64,000 nt of DNA from Obrimoposthia wandeli (Eukaryota). The translations under genes were made by a program, and so were the position numbers. Position 1 is the stretch's first letter, and every line of letters starts with the position of its first letter. The DNA lies in the NCBI GenBank assembly GCA_977020255.1, contig CDROCS010002801.1:62001-126000 (forward strand). Direction: 5' to 3'. Below are positions 6,170 to 64,000 of the stretch, piece after piece. Below the pieces are notes generated by a model. That model did not search any database, had not been told where the DNA came from, and saw nothing but the letters and a program-made list of their open reading frames with translations.

Positions 6170-6610
6170 TTGGATGACATCAAAGATTTCATAATATTAT
6201 AGTAAATGTTTGACCATCATATTATTGCGCTGTAAATAGTATGCAGTTCAGACTGTTGACATATTATCATGGACATTGCTTCACTAATACGTCATAAAGA
6301 ATGGGTTACCAATGAATTTAGCTGCAAACCCTATCCATACTATGAGTTTAGGAGAATTTAATGGTGCCTCTTGATATACTAATTGGAAACTAATTGAATA
6401 TTATTGACAAAAGTTTCATCTCCATTGCAAAGGTTTCGTATGGAATGATTTTAACTTCATATGAACACGCATTATTTCGTGAACTGAGGATAAGGGAGGA
6501 ATTTTTGTCTTTTCAATTCACCTCAGCTATTCGCTACCGCCATTTTGGAACACGGACCTTTAATGAAATCATTCTCCGTTTTAAATTACTGAACTGCTTT
6601 TGACACAGAA
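6170..6610 (-). mobile_element. Possible Helitron PIF1-helicase C-terminal remnant (heavily degraded)
   Basis: The minus strand gives FN*FPISISRGTIKFS*THSMDRV...YDGQTFTII, comparable to RQFPxRLAFAMTINKSQGQTxDRV...NIVY. Many stops. Confidence 0.4.
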
Positions 6611-6792
6611 TTTAAATTTTGGGAATAACACTGTAATAATTAATCAACATTAATAATGAAGCGAAGCGAAATTAATGTAATTAATTATGTAGCGAAAGGT
6701 TGAGACCTAATACAATACCGGCGGCAAACATGGTGTCAAGACTGAAAATTTTAAGCGCCTGAGGTAGGTCAAATTTGCACACAGGTAAAGTA

Positions 6793-6839
6793 AGATCGAG
6801 TTTAAAATCGCGACGCAGTCGCGATTTTAAACTCGGTCT
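6793..6839. repeat. Perfect 18-bp inverted repeat with a 3-nt loop (DNA hairpin)
   Basis: cgagtttaaaatcgcgac-gca-gtcgcgattttaaactcg at 6797-6835, extendable by aga/tct after one mismatch. Confidence 0.95.
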
Positions 6840-8009
6840 ACGTGATTTTTTTCAATTTCACCTGAGGCCATTTGAAAATTTTCTCAGAAAAAACAATTTT
6901 TTATTTTGAAAAAAAATTTTTTTGGGTGACAAAATTTGTTACCCCTGGGAATCTCGAAAGTTGAAAAGAATGGATATTTCTCGGCTTTTTGCACTAAAAA
7001 GATGAAAGTGTTAGACAAAGTTTCTCAAAATCAATGACAAGGAATACGAAAAAGGTAGCTCGGTTCACTGGCTACAAAGAGGAGAAGAGCTTTTTCGAAA
7101 ATAATTGTAATGCTAAACTAAACGGGTGACATGTAGTAATATAAATAAAATAGATAAATATATGTTTTGTTCTCCCAAGGCTTTTCAATGCGAGCTCAAA
7201 ATAAGTGGGAATTTCGACTGAAGAAATGATAGGAAAATATTAAATCAAGTTTATTGATTTTACTGAGAAAAGAAAAGTGATTTTGAGTAAAGTAATTCTT
7301 AAATATATTGAAGAATCTTTATCATTTATTTTGCTAGTTAATAAAAAGCTAATATTTGTGGAAAAAAACTTTTATCATATATAAATAATAAATATTGTTA
7401 AAAGTTGCGTTAAGATTCACTTAAAAATATTAGTAAAGTAGTAAAGAATTTAAGTTAATTTCAACAACAAAAATTTCATTAATTTTTGCATTTTTAATTT
7501 GAATAATAATTAGGCTTATTATTTTATATATCAATATTAAAAACAATCTGAAAAAAAATTATTTACAATTATTAAGGCAATTTAAATTTCAAATTATATT
7601 AACGTGGTTATTACAACTAATTTTCAAAGAAATTTGACTGATAAAAATGCATTATTTAACGTACAAAATCCATTTTAAAAAGTTAATAAGTCATTTGACC
7701 ATCAAATATTTAAAGTTTGTTAATAATTAATATTCCGAAAGATAAAATTATATATTTTTAAATGTAAAAGGAATTAATTTTAGATTTAGAGTTTTAATTA
7801 ATTAAAATTTATGTTCTTTTAAATAATTTTCTAAACATTTTAATTTGAATGAACTGAAGAAGTTTTTTATTATTATTTTACTACAAATATAAAACTATAT
7901 ATGTTCTTATCTGTCTTTAGAATATTATGGTTACAAAAATATGGGTGAAAAATACATAAATCAAAATTATATATTTAATAATGCGATGATACCTAATAAA
8001 TATATGATC

Positions 8010-8130
8010 TATTACTCAAAAGCGCTTCTTATTTTTCTATTATCTTCCCAATTTTATTTCAATAGTAAAAAACTGTTTCTTGAAATTTTCAACATTGTTA
8101 CATTTTCTTATATTCAATTTATCAAACATT
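8010..8130 (-). mobile_element. Second copy of the L2-type 3' UTR
   Basis: attactcaaaagcgcttcttatttt...cttgaaa(a)tttcaaca(c/t)tgt(c/t)ac is shared with 3670-3790. Confidence 0.6.
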
Positions 8131-10764
8131 TAGTTCTTCATATAGATTCCTAATTAAGTTCTTCTTGTCTCGTCGTAGCGAAAGGTTGACTCACCACCGT
8201 TGAGTCTTGACTAAGTAAGTAAATATACTGCGACGGTGGTGGCGTTCGTCGCTGCACTGGTGATAAGTCTCCATACAACTCCTCCTCGATATCTTCGTAC
8301 AAGTCAATGTTGTTGGAAAATACCCTTTTTTTATGAGTAAAAATAATTAAAATAAGTTTTCTTAGATGTACTAACATAGTAAGAGGTTCTGTGTCTTTCA
8401 GAACAAGGCAAAGTAGGTGGGATTCTGTTTGGCGATATAGCGAGATGTTTAGAAGAGGTTTCAGAAGGGAGATTAACACGATTGATTAAATTCTAAAGAA
8501 AATTATACCAAATCAACTATAGTATATTTAATCTCAACAAATATATGCTTGTATCTTAAAACTATGATGAAATCTATATATTTTTCAGGGATTTTGTTAA
8601 AATTTCATTGATCTCAAAATTTTTTAAACTAACGTGAAATTATCCATAATGCACATATTTATCAATATTTCGATTACAGTAAGAAAATTAGTGTAGATTT
8701 TGGAATACTTTAGAGGCCTGACATTAAACATTATCAGAATATATAATCCATAATAAGGTTAGAAATTAGAGTATTATCGGTTTGGCTTAGAGGTTAGAGC
8801 ATTAGCGGTTTAGGTTAGAGTTAGAGCTGTTAGGGTAAATCTTGACTGTTCTCAGTAAGGACATAATTACATTTCTGAGACCACTGAAATATTAGTTATT
8901 ATGTGTAAGTTTTTTTTTCGTTATTACTATCAATATTTCACAATTGGTTTCGATTAAATGTATCCATCAGCTCAAAAATCATTTGTAAACTAAGATTTTA
9001 TAATATTTCATTTAAATTCTATTGATTTATGAGAAAAATTGTTAAATGTAGAACTTAAAGATTAATATTTAGTTAGTAAATCAGTCTAAATAGATTAAAT
9101 TGGGATATATTGCTGTTATTGAAGATGCGTTTTAGAAGAGAAATTATTATGAATTAGAGAAAAATGGCTAATTCTATCCTAATTGATTTATTGAGAAGAT
9201 GGGTTTATTTGATAAATGTTTGAAAGTTTGGGGAAAAAGGGAATATAGGCTTGTTTCTAGATTCTGCTATGCATAAGCTGGATTTATTCGATATATGTAA
9301 GAAAATTAAGGAAAAGGTTAGGATTAGTGGGTTAGCGTTTTAGGGAGGTTAGAAGTTAGGGTTAGGGTGTATCTTTCCAAAATATAACTTATTTCATAAT
9401 ATTGAACTCACATTGAATACTTTTTAAGACTGTAAAAAGATGTTGTAAATAGTTGCTTATAGGGTCTAAGTCATGTATGAGTCAAAACAAAAGTTTTTAG
9501 GGGAAACCTAAGCTTTATTGAATAGCTTCCAACAACTGGCGGTGGTGAAGGATTTGAATAAGAGTATTGGTGGAAATAATCAGTGATAGAGTAATCATAA
9601 AAACCAATATGAACCAAATATTTATTAATTTAAAGAAAAAGGAGTATTCGTAAGATCTTTAAATGGTTTTCTTTTAGTAGTAATACTATTAGGAGATGTG
9701 AGTGATTGCGTATTCGGATTCATGTTTCCCTATAATTATTTCGGTTTTGGTTCATATTAGCATATTAATGACTTCCTGAACCAATGTTGCTTATCTTGAT
9801 TATTATTCATATTTTCCAAATTAATGTATATCGATATTGTTAATTTATAACATATTAACGACTACAGATTTCAGATAAATATTGAAAAACCGGATATAAG
9901 GTGATTACGTATAAGAAGTGAAATTAGGATAAATGAGAGCTTATATATGTTCTAAAAGGGATAAGCTGAATCTATTCGATATATCTGTTGGAAAAATAGA
10001 GAAAATAAGACATGATTATAGATTCTGTTATGTATGAGAAGAGGAATTATGCTAAATTATATGAAAATAGCTATTTCTGTCATAAAGTGATTTATTGATA
10101 AGCTGGGTTTATATCTATATATATATATTTGGGTAAATTAGGAAACCAAGGAATATTATGGTGAATTATACGAAGTTTGACTGCTGTATAAGAAGGAAAA
10201 AATAAAATCTAGATTGAATTATATATTCTAAAATATTTCAGAAGAAAGGTTATAGGAAATTTTATAAGAGTGAGAAAAAAAATGTTAGTGGGAATGAATC
10301 AAATAGTTATAATAAACCGAGGCTTTCTATCCATACGATTACATAGAAATTTTGATATGTATTGAAATAACTTCCAACATAACCCTCACTTTCAGAAAAA
10401 GACACCGAAATATACTTCTTTATTGATCATGAATTTCTACATAACCCTAGATACATATTGAAACTTTAGTGAAATTATCTAAATTTTACTAATATCCTAA
10501 TCCTATTTTCAGCCCATATTTTCATTTTCAAACATCCATTTCATCAAACTGCCGTGTTCGAGGAATACTTGAATCATCGCCATGGCTAGGCATGATTTTT
10601 ATAATGTAGCATTTTATTGAGTATGAAGCAATGGATGGTAGAAGAATATAGATTTATGTATTACAGTCTATTGAAGAGATTTCAGAAGTAAAAATGAACC
10701 ATATTGGTTATTTTTTATTCTAAATAAACTTATACAAGACCGTCTATTTTATCCATATTTCGAT

Positions 10765-19730: not shown

Positions 19731-20267
19731 CAAGAGCACAAGTCCATCTGCCACAAGATCCGCCAGTCCCGGCCTGGAGTCGCTCTTGGTATCATCGTGG
19801 TCATTGTCAGCATTGCTTGTGCTATTCTGGTCATTTTGCTTGACAATGAGTTCAACAGCAAAAGTGCAATCATGCTCCATAACTGTCAGGAGTTCATTTT
19901 CTACGCGCTTAGCCTCGTTGTTGCCATCATGCTGTTCCGGAAGACGCGTAAGCTAAAGTTCAGCTACACTTTTTTGCAAAACAATGTCGACAAGAACCTT
20001 CTGCAGCTGTCCTGCTTCTTCTCTCTCTACTTCTCTGTCCTGATCGCGGTGCTCTCGTTCCAGAACGGAACGGACACTGAGATCATCTTCCGCGGTTTCA
20101 CTGCCTTGCTGGAGCTTGTGCAGGTCATTGTACAGACGTACGTCATCCAGGACTGTTTCTTCCGATGCTGCGACAATCTCCTTTCTCAGGAACAGAAGCC
20201 TGGCCAGAACTATCTCGCTGTGCTGATTGGCTTAAATTTTGGGCTCTGGGTGCTCAAAAGCTTCCAG
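19731..20267 (+). CDS. OTOP: Otopetrin exon: QEHKSICHKIRQSRPGVALGII...KPGQNYLAVLIGLNFGLWVLKSFQ
   Basis: Acceptor gatgttgcag and donor gtcagt at 20268; 537 nt, several hydrophobic helices. Matches otopetrin KGLFxGI, QxxxQTxFI and KPGRExxTFLxxxNxxxW motifs. Confidence 0.93.
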
Positions 20268-21089
20268 GTCAGTCATATTTTGAAGCACAGTTAGAACTGC
20301 CAAGTCTTTCAATTTTTTTCCATTTTTACCCGAAGCTTTTTTAAGCAGTATTTGTCAACAATCTTGGATATAAATAAGTAATATTTGTTCAGTTAATTTT
20401 TTTTTTCTTTAACACACTTTGTAATTTATGTTTATTATATATTTATATATTTAGTTTATTTCTTATAAATAAAAGTAGTAAATAAAACATTATATTTAAA
20501 TACAAAACATACCAGCCGGTCGAGATATATCTGACCGGTTCTAACTCTGACAAAACATTGAAAGAATACAAACTCTTGTGAAATAGTATTGAATAATAGA
20601 TAAATATGAAGTGTTAAATAAAATAAATAAATTTTAGCTTTGTTTCAAGATCGACTTTTGGTCAACTTTCTCACAAACGTTACATGCTAGGTTCTACAAA
20701 ACAACCAGTTTTTCAGCAAGAAGGGATAGTTCCAACAATCAAACGCGTTCCAAACAGTTTAAATGCTATACCAAGACACAGTGTTGAAGAGGAATGTGTG
20801 AATCTGCATTCTGTAAAGGTTTTTTGTGTAAAAGTGCTTTGCTGTTGAACAGGAATTTCCCAAAGCCGATTCAGTCAAGACAGACACGGATCGTTTGAAA
20901 TGAACTGAAAAAAGTCGATATTAAAACAAACTTATCATTGCTCACAAATAATTGTAATAAATTGTATGAAAGGACTTTAAATTTGAGAAATTAATTCATA
21001 TATGATAGATTTTTATTTTGAGGTTTAAATTTAAATATTTAGAATTTTCGTCGGTTTTCTGATAATTTAAATACAGTTTCTTGGAATAC

Positions 21090-28533: not shown

Positions 28534-30080
28534 GAAATCGCTAACTAAGAATTTCTAAATTATAATGACAAAATTAAACATTTTATATGGTTTAATAAGT
28601 TACACATATAATAATCATCTAAACTTACTAAATACACAATTAGATAGCACTATTAAAATGCCTTACATGTAGCAAATATCGTATGTTGTGTGTATGTTTG
28701 AATTGTTTTCCACCTATGTGATTGGTACCAACCGTACTGTAACCAAAAGATAAAACAACGAGTCTTATATTTTATTTTGCCTAGGTATTCTTTACAAGCA
28801 TTAGGCATTATAATTTGTAAGAAGAAGAATTTTGTAAAATAATTCTATTTACAATTCAATAGCACCGATAAATTGTAGAAAACTAACACTACATTAAATA
28901 TTTCCTTATGATATTTTGTCTATGTTATGCAGATATTGAGAAGTAGACAATGGTTGCATTAAATTGACATCTTGGAAATTCAAGTAATTTCAAGCAACTG
29001 GGTATTTCCCAAGCCAATGTGCAACAACATCGTATAGCTGCCAAAATGTAGCGAATGCTTGGTTCTGTGTGGAAAATGAAATGTGTCAATTTCTAACTTG
29101 AACATTGGAAAATTGGAATTATTCTTGGGCATAATAACGTAACACCTAATCTCGTTTCGTCTGACTTCAAAAAGAACTTTTTATATAATTCATTAATTAA
29201 AAAGTTCTTGAAATTTGGGAGGTTTTTTGTATGAATAAAAAGAGGGAAATTTTAATTTATCATTTATATATTTTATAATTGTTTAAATTGTAGACATAAA
29301 TTACTAATTAGCCACAAGTTGTAGTTAAATCGTATTATAAGATGATACTCGACAAAAAAAATGTAATTGAAATATACTTTAAAAGAAGCAGTTGAAAACA
29401 AAAAATACAAAATATCAGATGATATATTTGAAGTAGATTGGCTAATTGTCGATTTTGAAGCTCACGTATTACACCTAATCCCACTGATTAGTGCCGTTAT
29501 AAAGAGTCGGCATGTAATCCTATAGTATAAGATGAGATTAGTAATAATACATAGTAAAACTTACCGATAAAAACAGCATCTATCCAAAATGAATGTTGCC
29601 GTAAAAACTGAATAATTACCTACTATAGAATGCATGCAGTCACACACCTACAGGGCAGAAAAAAAAGTACTTGAGTTCATTTTAATATAATTTTAATAAA
29701 ATAATCACCTTTTCTTGTCTTATTCATGTTTAATAATCCAAATTAATTCTAAAATTATTAAAAAAACACATAAAAAGTGCAAACTTACGAGTCAACGGCA
29801 CTAATCATATTGCTATCGGCAATATCGACTTTGATTGGGTGTATTGGCTTGCTGCCACATATAACTGACTGAGTGAGCTAGTTTTCTCATTTTATTACCA
29901 TAAGATTCAGCAAATGGAATCAAGACTAAATATTGATTGGACGCAAATGATACAGCTTCCAAATTAGAAAGATAGTGTTGTTTCCCAGTGTGCTTATGAA
30001 TTGATTTCAAATTTGGAAACTTATGGAAATTTATCTTTTGATTTATGCCGTATATGCCGTGAAACTATCAATTCTATCTG

Positions 30081-30215
30081 ATGCGTGAAATAGTTTACAT
30101 TCAAGTTGGTCAATGTGGCAATCAGATGGGTGCAAAGTTTTGGGAAGTTATATCAGAAGAGCATGGATTAAGCGTCGATGGATTATATAAAGAACCCGAC
30201 TCATCAGAATGGTAA
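30081..30215 (+). pseudogene. Isolated beta-tubulin N-terminal fragment [44 protein letters not shown]
   Basis: 25 of the first 30 residues match canonical beta-tubulin [30 protein letters not shown]. It ends at TAA or a possible gtaatt donor at 30212. No downstream tubulin sequence was found in the window. Confidence 0.85.
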
Positions 30216-49962: not shown

Positions 49963-50450
49963 ATCCTCTTTAGTCATGAAAAATTCTTGGTCGGCTTAAA
50001 TCATCTCCTAACATGAAAGTTCCAGCTGATTCGTCGAAAACTATGCCCCAGAGGCAATAACCATATCTTGCATAGTATTTTTACGATTATCACAAATCCT
50101 GGAGCTTTCCCTGCACTAATTTGAATATCTAATTTCCACTGTAGCAATTAGCAGAGGAAATTTCTATTGGTGAGATAACTCTCAAAATAGAATGAAAGTT
50201 TGCATATTTGATATTTTCTTTTCTGGAATTCACACTTGACACCTTCGTCAGTATCGATAAAGTATAAAGTATAGCGGCGATCAAACTTTAGTCCTTCAAT
50301 AAGTTCCAGTTCGCCAAATAATGTTCTTCCATCCTTAACAGTAATAATGCCATCTTTTCCCACTCTCTTCATAGCGTCAGAAATAAGGTCTGCCACATCT
50401 GCTACTTCATCTACTCCAACTGATCGAGCTTCAGCACTAAACTTCACATC
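49963..50450 (-). pseudogene. HSPD1: Mitochondrial HSP60 (cpn60) pseudogene fragment
   Basis: Collinear pieces: DVKFSAEARS..GVD..AD (N-terminus), ISDAMKRVGKDGIITVKDGRTLFGELELIEGLKFDRRY..YFIDT..KCEFQ, KKISNMQ..PLLIA, KAPGF, DNRKNTMQDMVIASG, TKED. Contains frameshifts and stops. TVKDG is the mitochondrial rather than bacterial GroEL form. Confidence 0.88.
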
Positions 50451-52197: not shown

Positions 52198-52351
52198 ATC
52201 AGCAACCGACAACTCAATCGCAGAAGAGCTAGAAGACGATGCAAGCAAATTCTACATCGGTGATGAGCCCTCCGGTGATGAGAATAGCCTCAATGGTACA
52301 GTGGATGCTGGAAACCCGTCAACAAACACAGAGTACAGCGACATGTTCTGA
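52198..52351 (+). CDS. OTOP: Probable terminal coding exon of the otopetrin gene: (R)SATDNSIAEELEDDASKFYIGDEPSGDENSLNGTVDAGNPSTNTEYSDMF*
   Basis: Pyrimidine-rich acceptor ttttcatttag ends at 52197. Phase 2 fits the preceding donor, the frame is open to TGA at 52349-52351, and the composition is exon-like. Too short for the ORF track. Confidence 0.65.
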
Positions 52352-53499
52352 TTTACACCATCTTCCTAGTGCCTGAACCTTCTCACTTCATCCCGATTCG
52401 ATTGCTAAACTCACTGGTCATATTTAGAACTACCTATTATCATCATAGTCATAAAAGCCACTTCACTTTCTTCCAGTTCATTATATTGCACATTTATTTG
52501 ATCAATTTCTCAAAGCAAAATTACTCAATCGTTCGTTAGAAAGATATTTTTATATTCGTGTACAAAATTCAAGATTTTAGCTTTCGAGGATTTATGAATG
52601 AAATTACTACATTTAAACAATTTTACTAAAATATCAATTTAAGCGGTTTCATTTAAATTTTCTTTCTTCTGAATTTATTTATTAATTAAAAATACACTGA
52701 TAACAGGCGTAAAGTGGTTTTGCCAAAGAGATCTAGTCAAACATATTACTTTTATTTCTGTTTTTGTACGATAATCTCGTTTGAAGCTCAACAAAATCCT
52801 AATCGGTGTTAATATCTTAAATTTATATTTGTAAAGGATTCTTAATTTTTTATTTTATGACATTTTTTCTTTCCATTTGTAGTAGAGATTTGAGAAGTTC
52901 ATAATAGTTCATGGTTTCTAAAAGCTAACATGTACGAAGTGGTTTAACAAGTTTGATGAAAAATATTTCTAATTTAAAGATATTAATAAAATGATTTTTA
53001 CTTCTCTTATACTGCTCGGTAAACCTCTCTAAATCGTGTGAAAAAAAATCCAGTAAAGGTGTGAGACATATTTATTTTAAAAAAGATACGAAAAAATTTG
53101 AATTTATTTTTTTAAATATAACATAAAATTTGTAACAAAAAGGAGTTTTAGTATTCAACATTTCATCTTTAGAACTTTGTTTAAGACACATGTGAAGGTC
53201 ACGTACTGTTTTACGTCATCATGCAATGGCATGAAGAACCCTTTCTTCAAACTGAAATCAACAATGGAATTTGTCAAAAAACATTTACAGTGAAGTTGCA
53301 TCTGAATTTGATGTATTTTACTGAAAAGTGATGGTGTAGAGAATATTTGGAAATCTTCATTTGATTAAAATAAATAGTGATTTTAAGATTTTGAACAAAT
53401 TTATAACTTAAATAGAAAATGAATATCAAAAAGGAGAAAATTTCAAATAAAAAACAATTTTATATTTAATATAGCGCTAATATCTAATTAATCTATGAT

Positions 53500-53860
53500 T
53501 TATCCAGTTTTCGATTATTCTTCGAAATATATTCTGAATATCAAAGTCTTCAGCTGCTTTTTAAGTTTTTCAACATTGTTACAAATTCTTAATTCCATCA
53601 TTAAATTGTTGTAAATATTCAGAGCATAAATTGTCAAATATTCCTTCACTCTGTTTGCCATTTGGGAATTTGTTAACCAGTCCGACGTCATCATCGTTGC
53701 TCCTAAGATTTATATACATACTCGCTGTACCAAGCTCGAGAAAATCATATAAATATGGAAACTTTTGTGAGATAATACATTTTTTCATAATATGTATGAT
53801 CTTGAATTCAATTCTGGCACTGATCGGCAGCCATTGGAGCTTCATTAAATGTTCATTAGT
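53500..53860 (-). mobile_element. L2-type LINE 3' end
   Basis: KLQWLPISARIEFKIIHIMKKCII...YL...LRS; same family as 3660-4040. Confidence 0.75.
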
Positions 53861-54613
53861 ACTAGAACTTTTTAATTTAAATATAATTTTGACAGTTTTT
53901 TTAAGATTTTCTGTTAGTAATTTAATTGATAAGTTGAATTATTAAACAATAGGGAATTTTGAAAATCAAGTCTTGATGTAATTGCTTTTGTTAGCATTGT
54001 AGTTATGTCAATAACTAATTATTTTCATATTACAAAAAAATTAATTTAAACTGTTGGATGTTCTTATTAGTTTATTAATTTGACAATACATTGAAATGTT
54101 TTCATCGAACACACAATCAATTCTTTATTTTACTTTTTACATGATAGATTTTTAAAACATGTATGAAACTAATTTTTCTTTTATATGGTTTATATTATTC
54201 TTTTGTCAAATCAATATATACCAAGTTTAAATCTCATTCATATTCTTTATTTATTTTGATTTTATCCATAAAACTGCTTTAGAAATAAGCTTTTCTATTT
54301 TATAAAATATGATTTCATTAAAATCAAAATAAAGTTGTGTTTTATCAACATACATACCGATGTACGTCAAAATGCGGTCGATAAAATGTACTTTAGACGA
54401 ACACTTGTTGAATTTTGTTCCAATAGGTCAGTATTTGCTGTAAGTGGGTCAAGATCAGTTGTAAATAGGTCATGTATTTGTTATTTAGTACGTGGATGTG
54501 TGACTTCTGGCACATAGTTTCACCCCGATGAATCATGTCTCTGTGGTAAAAATATGTGACGATGACTCATCCATGACCTCATGAGGTCAAGGTCATTATG
54601 AGGTCACTGTCAC

Positions 54614-54690
54614 TCTTGAATGTAGTTCTTTGAATGTGGTTCTTTTAATATGGTTCTTTTAATGTGGCTCTTTGAAAGTGGTTCTTTCAA
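54614..54690. repeat. ~14-bp tandem repeat x5 (tcttt(g/t)aatgtggt)
   Basis: Directly visible near the putative left end of the element. Confidence 0.8.
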
Positions 54691-55496
54691 AATTACCCTT
54701 CAAGTGTCAAAACCTTCAAAAATGTATTTTTCTACTTTTCAAACTTATATATAATAGGCTTGGTCTGAGCTTGGTCAGGCCTTCGAAGGTTGACCTTCAA
54801 GGTTCTACAACCTTCAAAAATGCAATATGCATGTGTTTAAAACAATCACAATTGCATTTAATCTTATAAGTGATTCATGGATTTTTATGAACAAACTATC
54901 ACTAAAAGATGATCATCTAGAAAATTTTTATACAATTTGTAAAATTTTATGAACAGACTATTCAGAACAAAATATACTTTATATTTTTAGTTCGACAGTT
55001 CGAATAGTTATAAAGTCTTATTCAAAATATCACAACTAATATGCGATGACCTGCGATTACAACCATTATCAATAAATACATTTTTTATATCCTACTGAAT
55101 TTTTCAAGGTCATAAAGCACGAACGCGTTCAACTAATTTTGTTAGATTAGGAGAAATGAAATTAAATAAATAACATGGTTGAAATATTTAAGGTTTTAAA
55201 TTAAAAAAACATAATCATTTTGAAACCTTGAAGGTCACGAAGTGAGTATATATGTTAAGAAAAAATGCAAAAAAAGGCTGTAAAAGATTAGAGTAAAACA
55301 AAGAAAGAAACAAATTAGTGGTAATGCGACATCAGCCGAAGAATTGCAAAGTTAGCGATCGCATTGATTAGACCTATAATCAAGAAAATTTCACACAAGT
55401 AGGTGGATGTGTCCGGTCTAATCCACACCCCCCTCCCCCCCTTGTCCTTTAAAACCGTGCATGTGTGTGGAGTGAAATTTCGTGTAGGTGTGTAGA

Positions 55497-56004
55497 AAAT
55501 TTTTCTACCCCCCCCCATCCCAAACACTCAAAAAAAAAAAAAATTAACTCCATTTAACACCCTGTAAATTTAAAAATCTCATAATGCTCATAAAAAATAA
55601 AAATGCATGATTTCATTCAATTGTTTAACATTTTCTTTATGGATATCTTTGATGATATAATCAAACTTGATTTTATTAAATTTGATATGATTGGAAAAGT
55701 GGTATGTGATAGGATTTTTGAACAAATACATATCCCATTCACAGTCATGATAAGAATGTTTCTTCAATTTGATGGTATAATTGAAGATAAATAAATGTTG
55801 AATAAAATCATTAGACTGATTATGGCTTTTTTTTCTTTATTGGAATTGTGTTGACAATGGATTTGATTCTCTTCTCTGGTGTGTTGGTAAATTTCGTACT
55901 GTAAAATTTTGAAGTAAATTTTCTACCCCCCCCCCCCATCCCAAACACTCAAAAAAAATTAACTCCATTTAACACCCTGTAAATTTAAAAATCTCATAAT
56001 GCTC
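55497..56004. repeat. ~90-bp direct repeat pair (55497-55589, 55916-56004) with poly-C and poly-A tracts
   Basis: aaattt(t)tctac(c)n atcccaaacactc(a)n ttaactccatttaacaccctgtaaatttaaaaatctcataatgctc occurs twice, differing only in homopolymer length. Confidence 0.95.
55603..55794 (+). CDS. Small 63-aa ORF of unknown function between the direct repeats
   Basis: ATG in aaaATG context, intact frame, aataaa at and just after the stop. No recognisable homology. Confidence 0.35.
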   Translation: MHDFIQLFNIFFMDIFDDIIKLDFIKFDMIGKVVCDRIFEQIHIPFTVMIRMFLQFDGIIEDK

Positions 56005-56020
56005 CCAAAATTTTGATTAA

Positions 56021-57575
56021 GGTCCTGAGAGGCCAAAAAATTGGCCAAAGCGTGCCCTACGGGCCCGCGGTGGATCAACGAGTAATAAATACAGGCTCAC
56101 TCCCTCTACAACTCCGACTCTGATACCCAACAATACAGTGCCTGATCCATTCAGAAGGCCACAATCTCCGATACGTCCTGTTAGGAGAATAAAGGCGACG
56201 AATGAGGTTAGAAATCATTTATTTAAAATGTTTTTTAATTTTATTTTCAGAAACTGCAACTGGATTTGGCACCGTCAGTGACCACGATTGAGAGGCTAAT
56301 TGAACCGCAATACTTGGCGAGTCAATGTAGCCAGGATGATCCCAGGAGTGATCAGAGATACCTACCGACTCCGGCTAAAATTGAGGTATATTTAATTATT
56401 CACTTAGAAAGCTGAGTTGGTGGAGGAAATTTGGGAGGAGGCATCTCGGAGACTACCTGTCGATATGAAGCAAGCGGCAGTTAGGAAACCTCGACGTCAT
56501 CGAATCAAAACTAATACGGTCCATTGGAAGAAGGCCAAGTTGGTGAAACAGGCTAATCTGCCCGTCATCGAGGTAAATTATTTATATGTTTAAATTTTAT
56601 TAATGTTTTTTTGTTGCAGGAACCAATAACATTAACTGAGGAGACATGGGCCAAAATTTCTCCTTTTCCGCATAAGCGAACGAGGCAGTGTGCTGTACGG
56701 AAGACACGGCGTTTTAGAAAGGCGAAATCCTGTCTGCTCAATTCGAGTGAAAAAACGATTGAGCGGCAGGAAAAACTTCCGTATAAGATTATTGAGGTAA
56801 TTTTTTGTTATTTTAAATATTTTTTTATTTAAATAAATTTTATTTGAAATTTTATTTTTGTTTTCATTTGCAGGAACCTGTCCCGATAATTGAGGAGACT
56901 TGGGGAGAAGTTACTCCTTTCCCTAAGAAAAGGACAAAGCGAGCAGAGGTGAAGAAGACGAGGCGCGCGAGAAAAATGCGAACCTCAATTGGCCATTATT
57001 CTGAGGCGGTGATTGGCCAGCAGGAGATTCTACCTCCTCCAATGGACGACGGGCCTATCTTATATGAGAGGATCCCAGTCTCGCCGATCGAGATAAGTCC
57101 GCACTCGAGTCAACAACGCCTGCAGGAGACTGCTTCTCCTCGTCCAACAACCAGCCAAAACTTGAAGAGGGCCTGGGATGACGCTGGTTTGGACGAATTC
57201 CTGGCGGAACTGGATACACCGGCAATGCTTCCAGATTCGCGTGGGAAACAGGATGCCGTCTCACGCCAGCTTCAGCGTGAGAAGGAGGAGAAACAGAAGA
57301 AAGCTCCGCGGAAGAGGAAGGCTACTGCTTCTATGTCGGGGCCATCAACATCGGCTGCACCTCCTCCCAAAACGTTGCGGCAACTATTGCCAAAACCTGA
57401 GGGAAGGACAATTGCTGTACAGCAACCGGTGAAGCCGAAAAAGAAACCGGGTCGGCCAAAGAAGAAGGAACCAGTACCGCTTTCTCCTATCAAAATAAGT
57501 CGGAGGGAATATGACCCGGATGATCCCAATGAAGACTTCGTAAGGATTTTCAAAAATATAATTTATAAACATTAG
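56021..57575 (+). CDS. Intron-containing basic repeat protein of the element. Exons ~56021-56206, 56251-56385, 56408-56572, 56620-56796, 56874-57575; start codon not resolved
   Basis: Four phase-0 GT-AG introns (44, 22, 47, 77 nt), each after a GAG codon, give a continuous frame. The last three exons are mutually homologous (EE.W...VxKxRRxR...Q..LP). Confidence 0.7.
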
Positions 57576-57605
57576 TTTCTTGTGTTGTCTTTTTATTATT
57601 ATTTA

Positions 57606-57784
57606 TTTTAGAATTTAGTAATATTAAAATATACTACTTAAGTTTATTAAAATAACAAGGTTAAAAATAAATTTTAGAATTTAATATTAAAATATACTAC
57701 TTAAGTTTATTAAAATAACAAGGTTAAAAATAAATTTTAGAATTTAGTAATATTAAAATATCCTCCTTAAGTTTATTAAAATAA
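57606..57784. repeat. ~63-66-bp AT-rich tandem repeat x3 in an intergenic spacer
   Basis: ttttagaattta(gta)atattaaaatat..cttaagtttattaaaata starts at 57606, 57672 and 57735. Confidence 0.9.
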
Positions 57785-57981
57785 AGTTAACTTATTCGAA
57801 TGTGATTGGATTGTTAAGGAATAAATAAAACAATTTAGGATTAAATATAAATGCAATGATTAGTTATATATTTATTAAACTTCCATTTGATAAATATATT
57901 TTAATTGCTTGTGATTGGATTAAAAATATCTTTAATTTATATATATAGGTTCAAATTTATTAACATCTTCATAATTAAAAA

Positions 57982-58293
57982 ATGGAATTTATTAAAATGC
58001 AAAGTTTGGTGACGAAGATCGAGGCAAATATAAGAATAAATGAGAAGAAAGGGGACTTAAAAAAGAGGGTCCTCAACCAGAATTTGTATACTGCTGTCGC
58101 GACAGAGTGGAATCATCGGGTGGAGATACAGGATAGGAGGCTAGCAGAACGCCGTCGAATCGTGGAGTGGAATAAGAAGATCGAATTGGAAAAAAGAAGA
58201 GAAGAGACGGAGGATGTTCGGCGAGCAGCAAGAAAGCGAATCCTCCAGATTAAACCGGAAGAGGGTCCTTCCACAAAAAAATTAATTTTATAG
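57982..58293 (+). CDS. 103-aa charged, probably coiled-coil protein with a basic C-terminus; function unknown
   Basis: Intact ATG-to-stop ORF in aaaaATG context, rich in E/K/R, in a gene-dense part of the element. Confidence 0.65.
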   Translation: MEFIKMQSLVTKIEANIRINEKKGDLKKRVLNQNLYTAVATEWNHRVEIQDRRLAERRRIVEWNKKIELEKRREETEDVRRAARKRILQIKPEEGPSTKKLIL

Positions 58294-58418
58294 ATTATTA
58301 TTTTGTCTTTATTGATTATGTTATAAAATTGTCTAAATACTACCTCGTCATTTTAATAAATTTTTGATTAATAGTTTTTCGTTATAAACAACGGGATTTG
58401 CTACAAATTTGGGTAATT

Positions 58419-58907
58419 ATGCAGGAATATATCATAGATTTTGAGGCTTTCATTAACAAAAATGGGGATTATATTATAAAAGAATTATGTATTATGGATG
58501 TATGCGACGTTTTTCATCCTTTGCATTTCATATTTCATATAGATATCCCATTTAAAAGTTTAGATTATAAGAAAAAATTTACTAATTTATATCTAACTAA
58601 ATATTTCCATTTATTAAAATGGAAAGAAGGACATAAGGCTTTTTGTGAAATATGTATTTTCGATACTATTAAATCTAATTTTGAAATTGAAAATGGAATT
58701 TTTTATGTTTTAGATGACATGGATGGCAAAAAATATAAGACTTTAAAAAAATATTTTCCTAAATTGAGGTTGAATACTTTAAATATTTCACGTGATCATC
58801 TATTAAATATTCCACAAAATATTTGCTGTCCATATCGTAATCATGGTGACCATTGCGCATATAAAAAATGTTTAAGTCTTTCTTATTATTACTTGACATG
58901 TAGATAA
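58419..58907 (+). CDS. 162-aa Maverick-associated protein with an N-terminal IIDFEAF...IIKEL (DxE, DEDD-exonuclease-like) motif and a C-terminal CxxxxHxxHC cluster
   Basis: Intact ORF from ATG 58419. The pattern xDxEGF/AF..FIxKELA..H..W..G..C..H..CA is one I recognise from invertebrate Mavericks. Nuclease function is inference. Confidence 0.65.
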   Translation: MQEYIIDFEAFINKNGDYIIKELCIMDVCDVFHPLHFIFHIDIPFKSLDYKKKFTNLYLTKYFHLLKWKEGHKAFCEICIFDTIKSNFEIENGIFYVLDDMDGKKYKTLKKYFPKLRLNTLNISRDHLLNIPQNICCPYRNHGDHCAYKKCLSLSYYYLTCR

Positions 58908-59049
58908 ACAATTCTTCTAATTGGAGGAATTCATTATTAAAATTTTACAATTATTTACAAATAAGGCTTTTAATTGGAGGAATAAAATTATTTTTTCAAC
59001 CAATAACAGATAAACAATCCTTCTCAGTGGAGGAATAAATTCAATTTTT

Positions 59050-59100
59050 TAATCCAATAGGAAAAGAGCATGTGTGCATAAATTTTAGTATATAAGCAAA
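59050..59100 (+). promoter_or_regulatory. Putative Pol II promoter of the PolB gene (CCAAT at 59054, TATATAAG at 59089)
   Basis: CCAAT and TATA boxes in canonical order, ~48 bp upstream of ATG 59137. Confidence 0.45.
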
Positions 59101-59136
59101 CACTTTCTTCATTTAAATCCCCGACAATTTGAAATA

Positions 59137-62100
59137 ATGCCTATGGTAAGAATTTATTTTTATTATTTCCTTATTAATATTTATTATTTCAGATTACGTG
59201 TAACCTATTCCCTGCGTATTGCGCTGCTTCGGCTCCGCATGGAGGAGAGTCCTGCATGGAGACAATGTCTGCATACTACCGGACAAAGTCTCAAGGTGTT
59301 CTGTTCTTCGTCTGCCCCTTCTGCAGAACAATGGAGGAGAAGGAGTTTCGAAAATTCTTCTGTGAACATCGAGCTCACCTATCGTGTTTCACGGCCAACA
59401 ACAAGAAGAGGGATATCGTCCAATTGGTGCGCGATTCGCAGGCCGCTCCAGCTCCACCTCCAATTAAAGTGGCAGTCAGTCTACCAGTTTATGGTCCTGC
59501 CATTGGTCCTTCTCTCCCGGCTCCTGATTCTGCTGCTGCCCCATCCACTCAAATGTCTAACAATGAGTGGATGAACGACATCTCCGAGGAAGATTTTGAG
59601 GATTTGGCACCAGCAACCCAATTCTCAAACAATGACTGGATGCGAAATATCACCCAGTCAGATTTCGAGATGGAGCAGCCTCAGTGGAGCGATAACTCAT
59701 GGTTGGAGACCATCGAGGAATCTGATTTCGTCGAGTCAACGGACGACAGCTGGATGGATTCCATCGATGAAGAGGACTTCATTCCAGCTCAACTTGGATT
59801 GTCATCATTAGGTTTTTTTTTTTTTTTTGTAAATTGTAATTATATATTTTATTTTTTAATATATATTTTTTATTTATATTATTTATTCAGGAAATACCGT
59901 TCTACAATCGTCATCTGCTACAACAGATATGCCTCCACCATCGCGAGTGCCTACATCGATGTTAGCGCGCCTTAGAGGTAATAATTTTTAAAAATATATT
60001 TATTTTTTAATATATATATTTCAGCAGCACTAACTTTTACAACAGCCGCTTCTTCATCGGAAAGGTCAGCGGTCCCTTCAACATCATCTACAGTTGCCTC
60101 AACATCGGCAGCATCAAAAATAGCAGCAGCTTCCACATCAGCTGCAATTGTCTCAACATCGGCAGCATGTCCAATAGCAGCACCTTCAACCTCAGCTGCG
60201 ATTGTCTCAACTATTAATATAAATAGTTGTCTTCCCGTTCAATTAGGGGGAGGTTTGTCAGCGACAAACGGAAGAAAGAGGCGAGGCCAATTTCTTAATA
60301 AGGTCCCACCCAAAAAACGTAGAGAAAACGGTGCTACTATAGAGTATCACCTAAATAATAAATATGTTATAGTTAAGGTGCCATTAGGAAATGAAATTTT
60401 ATTAAACGTAGGTGTAGATTCAAATATTGAAAATCTTTTAAAATCAGAAGTGACTAAATTAGGACAGGCTAAGGTTCAATTTTGCGCAACAGTGTAGTTT
60501 AAAAATGTCAATGAGGAAACTAAAACTTGGGTAATTTCACATAAAGCAACTGTTTTTTATGATAATTTTGTAACTGAAATTGGAAGAAACCTGGATGAAA
60601 AAATTGCTAATTATAGCGAGGTAAGTAGTGGATGGACTCTAGTTAGAATTCACAATGTTAGCTTTGTTCTACATGATATATCTTTCGGAGGGTTCATACA
60701 TTCCTTCACCTAGATCTCTTCAACTTTCACGTTCCATTGTTAACGTACAAAACAGTGATAACCTTTGCTTTCTGTATAGCGTGTTGGCCATCCTCAAAAG
60801 GGATGTAATTACTGAGCATAGAGAGCGTGTCAGTAAATATACCCCTTTTTTAAATGAATTGCAGTATCATGGAATAGATTTTCCTGTTAAATTAACTGCG
60901 ATATCAAGATTTGAACATCTTAATAACTTGAGTATTAATGTATTCAAATATAATACTGATATCCCAGTTAATGTAACAGACGAAGAAATATTTAAAAATC
61001 CTTTTGTAGAAGCAAAAATGAGGGGACTCAGGTCAACTTAATTTTGCTCGAACATAATAATAAATTCCATTATGCTGCAATTCCCAGTTTAGATCGTCTT
61101 CTAAATTTAGATAATGGAGCCTTACCGGTTAGGATAAGGTGTAAGTGGTGTCATAGATGTTTGCATGGGTTCCGATCCGAGCTCTCTTACAGCAAACATC
61201 TGACATTATGTTCACTGAATCCTGATGACAATACGCTATATAGCATGCCTAAGGATAATGATTTAAAATTCAGGGATTGGGCAAAATGCATACCCGTGGA
61301 ATTCAGGGTGTATGCAGATTTTGAGTCAATTTTAGCATTGCACGACCAGTATGAGAGTATTCACCTACCGGCTTCGGCAGGACTACTATTCTTAGGCCCC
61401 AATATTACCCAGTATCATAAATTTTCCGATCCAAATTGTATTTTAGATTTTATATTAAAATTAGAGGAATTAGGAACAACAATTTTCAAACCGTGGTATG
61501 ATCTCAATGCTCATCAAGCAATGATCATGACAGGCATAGACTGGGTTAATTTTAATTCTTGTAGATTATGTTATTTGTGTGGAACCCAGTCTAAGTTAGT
61601 CAGAGATCACGATCATGTTACGGGGCGATACTTGGGAGTAGCGTGCAACCTTTGTAACCTTGGCCGTCGTCTCCCTAAAAAACCACGCATTCCCATCGTG
61701 TTTCATAACCTCAAAGGATATGATTTGCATCATATACTTAAATACGCGTTGGGTACATTAAGCTCTTGGGAAATTTCATGTATACCTCAAACTTCAGAGA
61801 AATATTTATCTTTAACTGCATATACTGAATTCTGCAGTTTAAGATTCATAGATTCTCTGCAGTTTTTGAGCGGGTCTTTAAAAAATTTAACGGCATCTTT
61901 AAATGCATGGCCAATTACACAGTCAGTGTTCCCAGCTTCGGTTAACGATAAGGGGATTTTTCTGTATAAATTTGCGAAACCTTTCGCAGATTTAGAAAAT
62001 ACAACTGAAATCCCACCCATAACTGAATTTGAAAGTGTAAGTCTTCAAGACTATAATGAGGCCCGTACATTTTGGGTGAATAATTGTCAAAATCTTTTCG

Positions 62101-63602
62101 AATATATGCTTTATTATATGAAGTTAGACATTTATCTTTTAGCTGATGTTTTTGAGTCCTTTCGTGTAAAGTCTTTAGCAGAAGATGGGCTAGATCCCAT
62201 GCATTTCTTTAGTTTACCTGGTCTTTCATGGGCAACAGCAATAAAAACTCTTAAAATTAATATCGAGTTACTGCAAGATCCCGCGATGTATCAAATGTAT
62301 GATTATGGTATACGCAGTGGAATGACTTTTGTCAACAAACATCATGTTGTCAAAAATCAATCCACGGAGATTCTGTACATCGATATTAATAATTTGTATG
62401 GGTGGGCGCTTACTCAACCTCTACCTCATGCCAACTTTAAGTGGGTTTATGATGTGGATCAGTTGAATAAGTTGATGACAGATTTGGCTACTGTTGATAC
62501 AGTTTCATCCGACGTCGGCTATTTGGTTGAGGTGGACATAAAAATCCCTCCCAATGTGCATGATAAATTAGATGATCTTCCAGTAGCGCCTGTTCATCAA
62601 TGCCCACCTAATTCAAAGGTTAAGAAATTATTGTTAACCCATGAAGACAAGTTGAATTATGTTGTGCATTGGCGGCTTCTTCAATTCTACTTAAAGTTGG
62701 GAGCGAAAGTTACTCGAATTCATCGTGCTATAAGCTTCAGTCAAAACTTTGTGTTTAAAGACTATATTGAGAAGAATTCAAGAAAACGTAATTTGGCCAC
62801 TAGCAAATTCGATCGAGATTTTTACAAGTTAAAAAGTAATAGTCTCTTTGGAAAAACTGTAGAGGACTTGCGGAAACGTATTTGTCTACGGTTTTGCAAT
62901 GATGAGCGTAAACTAATAACATATATTAGCAAGTACAACTTCAAGCGTAGTTTTACAATTGCAGATGACTTGGTAGCAGTGTTATTAGGAAAACAGAGTA
63001 TTTGTCTCGATCGACCGAGTTATATAGGTCAAACGGTTTTAGACATTTCTAAAATCAGAATGTATGAGCTTCAATACATAGAATTGGAGAAATATCGACG
63101 AGAATTCAATTGTGAAATCAAAATCGCAGCTGGGGACACTGACTCTTTCTTTTTAGAATGTAGGAATGTTAGTTTAAATAATCAATTATTACCAGCAATG
63201 TTTAGGGACAACTTACTAGATACCCATAAATATCCCGCTAACCATCCTCTACACTCTATGAGTTTAAAGGACATTATCGGGAAATTTAAGGATGAAAGCG
63301 AGGGACAGGTTTCGTATGATGATTGTATTTTCCTACGCCCTAAATGCTACAGTTTACATGCATCTAATAATACATGTTCAATGAGAGCAAAGGGTGTGGG
63401 AAGAAACAATCTTACACATGAGGCCTACCGGAAAGTTTATGATACTGGGTGTATTGAAAGCGTTGAGCAAACTAGATTTATTTCAAGATCCCATCAACTG
63501 TATTCCCATAAATCAACCAAAATCGCGTTGAGTAGTAATGACGACAAGCGCTTTTGGGTAGAAAAGAACGCTAGCCTGGCTTATGGACACTTCAGAATTT
63601 AA
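59137..63602 (+). pseudogene. Full spliced pPolB gene model (exons 59137-59145, 59193-59811, 59891-59977, 60025-63602) with one in-frame TAG (60495) and two mutually compensating frameshifts (~60680, ~61020)
   Basis: GT-AG introns of 47, 79 and 47 nt give a continuous frame into QLGGG and the Polinton pre-polymerase motifs SSGWTL..I, GSYIP, IVNVQNSDNLCFLYSVLA, GIDFPV, ISRFE.LNNLSINVF, VNLILL..HY. Confidence 0.7.
61044..63602 (+). CDS. polB: Protein-primed family B DNA polymerase core (Polinton/adintovirus type), 852 aa intact
   Basis: ExoI VYADFES, inserted Zn/EndoVII-like CYLC..RDHDHVTG..C..CN, ExoII FHNLKGYD, ExoIII YMKLDI, motif A YIDINNLYG, motif B KLKSNSLFGKT, motif C GDTDS, then GKFKDE, LRPKCY, KGV, DDKR. 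Confidence 0.97.
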   Translation: MLEHNNKFHYAAIPSLDRLLNLDNGALPVRIRCKWCHRCLHGFRSELSYSKHLTLCSLNPDDNTLYSMPKDNDLKFRDWAKCIPVEFRVYADFESILALHDQYESIHLPASAGLLFLGPNITQYHKFSDPNCILDFILKLEELGTTIFKPWYDLNAHQAMIMTGIDWVNFNSCRLCYLCGTQSKLVRDHDHVTGRYLGVACNLCNLGRRLPKKPRIPIVFHNLKGYDLHHILKYALGTLSSWEISCIPQTSEKYLSLTAYTEFCSLRFIDSLQFLSGSLKNLTASLNAWPITQSVFPASVNDKGIFLYKFAKPFADLENTTEIPPITEFESVSLQDYNEARTFWVNNCQNLFEYMLYYMKLDIYLLADVFESFRVKSLAEDGLDPMHFFSLPGLSWATAIKTLKINIELLQDPAMYQMYDYGIRSGMTFVNKHHVVKNQSTEILYIDINNLYGWALTQPLPHANFKWVYDVDQLNKLMTDLATVDTVSSDVGYLVEVDIKIPPNVHDKLDDLPVAPVHQCPPNSKVKKLLLTHEDKLNYVVHWRLLQFYLKLGAKVTRIHRAISFSQNFVFKDYIEKNSRKRNLATSKFDRDFYKLKSNSLFGKTVEDLRKRICLRFCNDERKLITYISKYNFKRSFTIADDLVAVLLGKQSICLDRPSYIGQTVLDISKIRMYELQYIELEKYRREFNCEIKIAAGDTDSFFLECRNVSLNNQLLPAMFRDNLLDTHKYPANHPLHSMSLKDIIGKFKDESEGQVSYDDCIFLRPKCYSLHASNNTCSMRAKGVGRNNLTHEAYRKVYDTGCIESVEQTRFISRSHQLYSHKSTKIALSSNDDKRFWVEKNASLAYGHFRI

Positions 63603-63875
63603 ACGGTTTTCATTTTTTGATTTTTTAGTTTAGTTTTTTAAAATTTTAGATCCCTATGGCACCTAGACTCTAACTTATTTGTTATTTCAATACTTTTTTA
63701 GGATGGACCTTATTTATTATGCCTTATCTTTGCTGACATATCTCATTGTGATGTTGTGATTAATAAATGTATTAAAACAATTGTCTTATGTCTTTTATTA
63801 TTTTACCCTTAAATTTTTAGAGATTTAAAAAATAATTCAAAATAAAACATTTAAAATTTTTATTTTTATAACACA

Positions 63876-64000
63876 CTAATCGTTTTGCAACGATAACCAT
63901 AAAATACATAAATGTCCACAGTTTTTCGTCGCAGGATCCTGATATTGTATCTTGTTGTAAAATACTCTTCTTCGTCCTTTTTGAATAGTTGAAACAAGTT
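63876..64000 (-). CDS. C-terminus of an adenain-type cysteine protease (Polinton PRO), partial: ...RRVFYNKIQYQDPATKNCGHLCILWLSLQND*
   Basis: NxxQxQ....xCGxxC carries the oxyanion Gln and catalytic Cys of adenovirus/Polinton proteases. Convergent with PolB; cut by the window edge; not in the ORF track. Confidence 0.75.
   Translation of the reverse strand, partial: LVSTIQKGRRRVFYNKIQYQDPATKNCGHLCILWLSLQND

Follow-up and report, generated by a model that had tools for sequence, protein, structure and literature searches.

Short, probably spliced introns in the core genes of a young Maverick/Polinton family in Obrimoposthia wandeli

The right-hand end of a 64,000-nucleotide stretch of the Obrimoposthia wandeli genome (the window; contig CDROCS010002801.1, G000:C2801:62,001-126,000) very probably holds a complete, if decayed, 16.4-kb Maverick/Polinton copy that belongs to a young family with thousands of insertions. 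Short GT-AG introns in its PolB, protease, TBP-like and orphan genes would be spliced by the host, and the family would be part of a clade that shares the intron habit and a compact TBP. The element spans 55,398-71,779 (16,382 bp), with its right part outside the window. Positions above 64,000, called extended, continue the count of the window, and the position on the contig is obtained by adding 62,000.

The element begins with AGT and ends with ACT, and AG..CT-type ends are the rule in Mavericks/Polintons. Its terminal inverted repeats (TIRs) are ~105 bp long and 85% identical, the left one at 55,398-55,502 (plus strand) and the right one at extended 71,680-71,779 (contig C2801:133,680-133,779), ending at 71,779. 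They are flanked by a 6-bp target-site duplication (TSD), with the left hexamer at 55,392-55,397 and an identical one at extended 71,780-71,785. Thus, the right TIR and TSD that an earlier note, made from the sequence alone, had proposed to look for beyond the window were both found. The sequence at 54,330-55,397 consists of one or more older dispersed repeats (45-46 matches at ~70-90%) and was the insertion target. Two of five other copies of this target repeat have an empty site, where the sequences on either side of the insertion adjoin and the 6-bp target is present once. The earlier note had started the element at 54,330, which was rejected as 1.07 kb too far left because the TIR, the TSD and the empty sites put the start at 55,398. 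Likewise, the insertion lies 3.05 kb, and not ~2 kb, past the stop codon that the note assigned to otopetrin, as measured from 52,351 to 55,398. The 16,382 bp of this copy fall in the 15-25 kb reported for Mavericks/Polintons (PMC6431247), and sister copies with both ends and a TSD measure 13.9-17.5 kb. Part of the target repeat forms inverted pairs ~1.7 kb apart elsewhere in the genome.

The core genes lie on both sides of the window's right edge. The protein-primed PolB (pPolB) gene has four exons on the plus strand (59,137-59,145; 59,193-59,811; 59,891-59,977; 60,025-63,602). Its product matches PF03175 (E 1.5e-25) and combines a CxxC N-terminal module, a low-complexity linker, putative terminal protein and vOTU regions, EndoVII (PF02945, E 3e-5), and exonuclease and polymerase motifs. 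Candidate Cys and His motifs for an N-terminal OTU, a proposed Adintoviridae trait, were located at 60,760 and 61,062. On the minus strand, the protease gene runs from a start codon at extended 64,256 to 63,876, with its 3' tail in the window (63,876-64,000; motif QYQD..NCG). The HW, FD and Q..CG motifs, which we take to mark an adenain-type protease, occur in order, and the protein is 50-51% identical to its homologs in the metagenomic contigs L032 and L037; two pieces of it, one in the wrong frame, gave no Pfam match. Also on the minus strand are the major capsid gene (extended 64,258-65,477), a putative minor capsid gene (extended 65,816-66,858; assigned by position and by homology to L032, L037 and L097), an rve integrase with a chromodomain-like tail (extended 66,873-67,878; PF00665, E 6e-13), a packaging ATPase of the A32/FtsK type (extended 68,472-69,122; PF04665, E 2.4e-6) and a TBP-like gene (extended 69,458-69,957; PF00352, E 2e-10).

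The major capsid protein is 52-60% identical to its L032 homolog. The model of the latter (pLDDT 91.7) is a double jelly-roll with a Foldseek match to the PBCV-1 capsid (E 1e-16), and a search of PDB sequences with the L032 capsid returned no match. Similarly, the modelled L032 TBP forms the full two-repeat saddle in only 149 residues (pLDDT 97.4; TM 0.72-0.79 against PDB TBPs), and its family numbers 113 cluster representatives at E <=1e-10. Every defining Maverick/Polinton feature that was put to test is present, with the single jelly-roll minor capsid as a putative assignment. The earlier note's call of a Maverick/adintovirus-type element with a pPolB and a protease tail is thus borne out, and the capsid, ATPase and integrase genes that it expected further right, whose absence together with that of a TIR it would have counted against the element, were all located.

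Introns 1-7 are AT-rich GT..AG segments of 44, 22, 47, 77, 47, 79 and 47 nt on the plus strand of the window. The earlier note had counted at least seven introns of 22-79 nt; all seven exist, but the 22-nt size is a private deletion of a 44-nt intron. Four of them interrupt an orphan gene of five exons, gene A (56,096-57,575, plus strand). Intron 1 (56,207-56,250; 44 nt) has GT..AG in 18 of the 18 copies, among 31 loci, in which it was found, and intron 3 (56,573-56,619; 47 nt) in 8 of 9. Intron 2 (56,386-56,407) measures only 22 nt here. Of the 11 copies in which it was located, 9 have 44 nt and one has 28 nt, and a functional 22-nt intron was rejected as a family trait. Intron 4 (56,797-56,873; 77 nt here, 65-111 nt in sisters) probably arose when an exon-intron unit was duplicated in tandem. 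Introns 3 and 4, together with the starts of their exons, are the only ones that resemble each other. Introns 5 (59,146-59,192; 47 nt; GT..AG in 26/26 copies), 6 (59,812-59,890; 79 nt, 74-82 nt in sisters; 16/18) and 7 (59,978-60,024; 47 nt, 40-49 nt in sisters; 19/23) had been placed in an accessory gene. They were reassigned to the PolB gene because exon 2 aligns with the very beginning of PolB proteins that are contiguous in relatives (E 1.5e-10 to 3e-3; 9 of 125 proteins), among them the 1,298-aa open reading frame (ORF) of L032. Outside the window, intron 8 lies directly 3' of the protease start codon (extended 64,210-64,251, minus strand) and intron 9 in the TBP-like gene (extended 69,790-69,827, minus strand; 38 nt), where the acceptor is damaged in this copy. 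Further GT..AG candidates occur at 57,540-57,618, at the end of gene A, and at 63,606-63,649, just past the PolB stop codon.

The segments have a GT donor, a T-rich tract and an AG acceptor, and the frame is restored upon their removal. With introns 5-7 taken out, 8 of 13 copies have an open PolB frame, as compared to none of 13 unspliced; for the protease, the corresponding values are 20 and 0 of 28. Most copies keep the GT and AG ends while segment lengths differ by non-multiples of three, and no copy scored lacks an intron (the shortest segment has 22 nt). For variants shared between copies, the ratio of nonsynonymous to synonymous change (dN/dS) was 0.19-0.72 in the predicted exon frames of gene A and the 5' part of PolB and 0.75-3.4 in shifted frames (six of six controls). 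Insertions and deletions number 4-26 per kb per copy in introns and 0.3-7 in exons, a difference that carries little weight because AT runs are error-prone. These patterns suggest that the host spliceosome likely excises the short introns of the PolB, protease, TBP-like and orphan genes. Group I or II self-splicing introns were rejected as candidates, as the segments are 22-79 nt long and 54,000-64,000 has no Rfam match. In the case of contigs from four sequenced runs of unknown kind, all from one sample, no join fitting introns 1-5 was present among 15 of 494 matches listed to 55,300-59,800, which counts neither way.

The studied copy is decayed: gene A has lost its start, the capsid and integrase genes carry deletions and the TBP acceptor is damaged. 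PolB is broken by a stop at 60,495 and by small deletions near 60,675 and 61,010. Assembly error is an unlikely source, since six of the breaks are 7-14-bp deletions and two are 1-bp. The family itself is large. Exact motif matches were counted in the 1.35-Gb assembly, where reversed-pattern controls gave 0, and reached 12,645 for a 30-nt stretch of the terminus, 4,756 for a PolB 20-mer, 7,930 for a capsid 20-mer and 7,336 for a TBP 20-mer. The copy number that the earlier note asked for is thus in the thousands. One capsid 22-mer had 17 matches only, probably because it covers a variant private to a sub-lineage. Thirty loci were sampled, namely the 10 best protein matches and every fifth of 100 listed PolB-motif loci, and both ends with distinct 6-bp TSDs were present at 10 of them. 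Twenty evenly picked loci average 12.2 kb of element each. With 4,756 PolB copies at this mean length, PolB-bearing copies alone amount to ~58 Mb, or ~4% of the assembly; haplotigs would cut the count and not the share.

All 104 scored protein matches are 98-100% identical, and PolB divergence has a median of 1.0% (range 0.3-4.2%; 0.84% for the studied copy), so that the youth proposed in the earlier note holds at the level of the family. Variants private to one copy are near neutral (dN/dS 0.35-2.0, stops included). Shared variants give dN/dS values of 0.20 in the PolB core, 0.17-0.25 in the capsid, 0.27 in the integrase, 0.09 in the ATPase, 0.22 in TBP and 0.36 in the protease. The combination of nearly neutral private variants and constrained shared ones indicates that the lineage replicated under selection and that insertions decay afterwards. 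The family would best be described as a young lineage with thousands of insertions, and present activity would go beyond what its mostly broken copies support. Short derivatives were also observed that consist of TIRs only, measuring 176-183 bp with one of 808 bp (G000:C1:72187-72369 and others, L170-L174); 6-bp TSDs were exact in three of five.

The middle of the minor capsid gene (extended 66,190-66,717; L002:2190-2717) occurs in a uniform class, 97-99% identical within, and a diverse class, 88-95% identical within. The differences between classes mostly change amino acids, and other core genes are almost without fixed differences. This suggests that the stretch may be under relaxed or diversifying evolution. 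Positive selection is not supported, as the ratio is not significantly above neutral (31 nonsynonymous to 5 synonymous differences, p 0.21, with the classes defined on the same stretch).

The nearest relatives are metagenomic contigs with PolB identities of 47-54%. A PolB phylogeny, which the earlier note had called for, was built from 93 sequences; 47 of 87 loci were excluded because they were short or interrupted, and roughly half of the long protein matches were retained. The tree places the window element in a clade of 23 members that includes L032-L037 (support 0.998) and has no named reference inside. The best named PolB relative, P0113, is 35% identical, and PolB relatives in IMG/VR reach 25-34% only. 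Among 120 listed of 165 capsid homologs there is no named reference adintovirus. Both L032 and L037 have the same core gene order and TBP as the window family.

The protease intron is in phase 2 and lies 43 residues before GEHW, the catalytic His motif, in the window family, in L032 (39 nt) and in L037 (37 nt); it is absent in the more distant L097. This intron would be old. In the PolB genes of L033, L034 and L039, GT..AG segments of 43-48 nt coincide with frame breaks or stops in conserved regions where L032 is contiguous. Several introns are present in the 5' part of the gene in L036, L037 and L100, and none in the PolB ORF of L032 and L035. This variation indicates that intron content turns over within the clade. 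The repeated exon-intron units in gene A and L036 suggest tandem exon-intron duplication as a possible route of intron gain. In L036, the PolB 5' region at L036:80-470 is made of such tandem repeats, like gene A. The earlier note had inferred a compact intron style of the element's own. However, host chaperonin genes contain AT-rich GT-AG intron candidates of 41-112 nt (three of seven loci scanned) and close metagenomic relatives carry similar introns of 37-50 nt, so the short introns characterise the clade and are not a style private to the element. The note had also allowed that such introns might prove common and already described in the closest relatives; they are common there, but no description was found in the literature searched.

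Several points weigh against this interpretation. Splicing is predicted from frame restoration, homology and purifying selection and not from transcript junctions, and gene A exon 4, with a dN/dS of 0.72, is under weak constraint. The shared position concerns the protease intron only, and the family may be alone in having introns 1-7 and 9. Most copies are broken, with open frames in 1 of 31 for the last PolB exon, 2 of 22 for the integrase and 7 of 24 for the capsid, and the copy counts may include haplotigs. The capsid and TBP folds were modelled on the relative L032 and not on the window's own family. Finally, the proposed link between TBP and promoters, considered below, is a co-occurrence; the promoter word was picked on a prior lead, and 4 of 38 windows are without an ATG end.

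These points were weighed together with other explanations. It is highly improbable that the AT-rich GT..AG segments are not spliced and represent low-complexity spacers or insertions, with the pieces being separate ORFs or decayed sequence. In favor of this explanation, the sequence heuristic also calls chance sites (one in the PolB core and three on the non-coding strand, for example), and an in-frame Met in PolB exon 2 aligns with the start of some relatives. Yet the frames rejoin only upon removal of the segments, whose ends persist while their lengths vary out of frame; purifying selection acts on the exons in the spliced frames only, and the stretch from the segment to the catalytic His in the L032 protease contains no Met. 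It is also unlikely that the introns were acquired after integration in this host, by host-style gain or as introners like those of dinoflagellate proviruses, which would make them uninformative on the clade. Host introns do look alike, the L032 PolB and TBP, the L035 PolB and the L037 TBP are contiguous, and most introners described in Maverick-like elements are secondary in the available part of that report (PMC11957031). Against this, the absence of an intron-less copy among those scored indicates that the introns predate the family burst, and the protease intron sits at one position in three elements that are ~50% identical. Gain after integration may still apply to introns 1-7 and 9.

A further explanation concerns how the family multiplied and is compatible with host-spliced introns. 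It is quite possible, although short of probable, that the family spread purely as a germline transposon, with no extracellular phase and with a capsid module that serves intracellular steps or is vestigial. The thousands of integrated copies and the non-autonomous derivatives of 176-808 bp fit this explanation. The purifying selection on the major capsid, ATPase and protease speaks against it, as do the hypervariable middle of the minor capsid (not significantly above neutral) and the presence of close relatives in environmental metagenomes.

With regard to gene expression, promoter words suggest a possible division of labor. The word ATAAACA was found in 20 of 38 upstream windows of the window family, L032 and L037, as compared to 1.9 expected, mostly before capsid or packaging genes. 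In the window, TATAAACA, which is common to the capsid and packaging genes of the clade, lies at 58,383-58,390 (plus strand), upstream of the ORF at 58,419. The PolB, gene A and TBP genes of the window family sit behind TATATAA. In the proposed mechanism, host Pol II would transcribe the element in the nucleus. The first products would be those of gene A, PolB and TBP, expressed from an ordinary TATATAA box read by the host TBP, and the element's own TBP would then read the TATAAACA word before the late capsid and packaging genes, a binding predicted from motif enrichment. The host spliceosome would remove introns from the transcripts, and the spliced pPolB would copy the linear genome from the AGT termini by protein priming. 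The integrase would insert the element, making the 6-bp duplication, and short TIR-only derivatives would be mobilised in trans. Introns would be gained and lost along the clade, partly via tandem exon-intron duplication. Replication and insertion of this kind agree with Polinton biology in the available part of a recent report, where a terminal-protein and vOTU region before the polymerase primes replication at the ends and the integrase makes a 6-bp duplication (10.1101/2024.03.18.585575).

Tentatively, and with somewhat less than even confidence, we propose that these elements form an undescribed clade of animal polintoviruses with a two-step nuclear programme, early promoters read by the host, a miniature TBP of their own for late genes, core genes that depend on the spliceosome and an ancestral intron that gates the maturation protease. 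One member would have reached one of the highest copy numbers on record for a virus of this kind in an animal, with its capsid genes under selection, and the clade would have been systematically missed or mis-annotated by intron-blind surveys. The core genes of Mavericks have been described as lacking introns, and surveys rely on long ORFs, so that a clade with split genes would be undercounted and misread as degraded. The shared introns would tie the clade's life cycle to the nucleus, and the clade offers a natural series for intron gain and loss, in which the number of introns in a single orthologous gene ranges from zero to several. A large young family with conserved capsid genes, which makes up several percent of the host assembly, is also a good place to ask whether animal Mavericks make particles.

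Comparison with known systems refers to the portions of the cited papers that were available. Vertebrate Mavericks/Polintons share the TIRs, the 6-bp TSD and the two modules, with PolB facing the protease, capsids, integrase and ATPase (PMC8097293). However, the ORFs of the intact vertebrate elements are intronless ('No introns were observed'), whereas PolB and the protease are split here, contrary to a trait that is descriptive and not definitional for Mavericks/Polintons. The available text also has no mention of a TBP, and it counts 134 intact elements in 17 species as compared to thousands of copies of one family here (PMC8097293). In nematode Mavericks with wasp/krma cargo, a gene near the left TIR contains introns and lies in a GC-richer region, as gene A does, but their introns are in host-derived cargo and their core genes are called intronless (10.1101/2022.07.12.499685). 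Adintoviruses have in common with the element a PF03175 PolB with a putative OTU region, an rve integrase with a chromodomain-like tail, adenain, an FtsK-like ATPase and a pX-like ORF. TBP appears as a label in the legend of their Fig. 5 map, and a word search of the available text finds no spliceosomal introns (PMC8502044). An EndoVII/HNH-like domain inside PolB is likewise found in the HNH-bearing pPolB2 Polintons of nematodes and oomycetes; the same survey holds ~22,000 integrase-linked pPolBs in ~1,100 genome listings, as compared to at least 4,756 in one assembly here, with criteria that differ (PMC10748475).

Spliceosomal introns also occur in the dsDNA viral genomes of introner-containing Maverick-like proviruses of dinoflagellates, but mostly as secondary mobile insertions (PMC11957031). 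Mirusviruses are intron-rich as well, and their introns are read as a sign of nuclear reproduction, but they are unrelated giant viruses of protists (PMC12768974). Thousands of capsid gene copies (2,224 and 4,841) are known from the Mavericks of Trichomonas vaginalis, a protist in which they occupy about a third of the genome. Here, one family in an animal has 7,930 exact capsid-motif matches, more than the 4,841 that is the largest number in the available part of that survey, although methods differ (PMC10120064). No account of spliceosomal introns in the core genes of animal Mavericks turned up in a literature search that extended neither to the founding papers of 2006-2007 nor to Repbase or supplements, and the available portions of PMC12220804, PMC11244446, PMC11296320, 10.1101/2024.03.25.586562 and 10.1101/2024.03.18.585575 do not contain one.

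The remaining genes of the element are accessory. Gene A, whose 5' end is deleted here by ~1.4 kb relative to a sister copy, encodes repeated EExW exon modules and a basic C-terminus, with an acidic N-terminus in sisters, and matches no Pfam family. Three exon-intron repeat modules are present here and fewer in sisters. Small ORFs, of which the earlier note had counted three, were confirmed at 57,982-58,293 and 58,419-58,907 (both plus strand). The former encodes a charged protein of 103 aa under purifying selection (shared-variant dN/dS 0.11), for which a Pfam search gave nothing useful. The latter, of 162 aa, belongs to a conserved eukaryote-associated family and is 44% identical to an ORF of L032; Pfam and PDB sequence searches gave nothing useful, and there is a weak lead to a Maelstrom/3'-5' exonuclease-like fold. 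The minus strand also carries a pX-like ORF (extended 67,965-68,240; E 0.011), a small ORF after the major capsid and another between the ATPase and the TBP-like gene. Of two plus-strand ORFs at the right end, the one at extended 70,237-70,683 is conserved in L037, with a weak lead to ssDNA-binding families of nucleocytoplasmic large DNA viruses (NCLDV). L032 additionally encodes a ubiquitin-conjugating enzyme (PF00179, E 2e-12) and carries two genes that resemble the minor capsid gene (L032:13480-13977 and 6512-8583).

Beyond the right TSD, a fragment of a DUF659 (hAT-like) transposon is present at extended 72,300-73,450 (L002:8331-9439). It is followed by an older copy, 79-85% identical, of the Maverick right end including TBP (extended 74,058-76,644; L003:58-2644). 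A ~14-kb unit between 900-bp direct repeats (86%) then occupies extended 76,668-90,680 (L003-L004), with tandem sub-repeats and RING-finger and dual-specificity phosphatase ORFs; it is possibly a large long terminal repeat element with cargo. To the left of the element, the Otopetrin domain exon of the host gene lies at 19,737-20,309, and the frame of 52,199-52,351, proposed as the last otopetrin exon, has no Pfam match. A chaperonin-like fragment at ~50,220-50,435 (minus strand) is 30-39% identical to L157 and L158. These are among ~twenty intronless 550-aa PF00118 ORFs in the genome (L157-L163 included), six of which were compared with L157 and are ~70% identical in DNA, making up an unusual expanded HSP60-like family. 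The region of the host gene also includes, at 30,063-30,212 (plus strand), what we take to be a short N-terminal fragment of a beta-tubulin-like gene.

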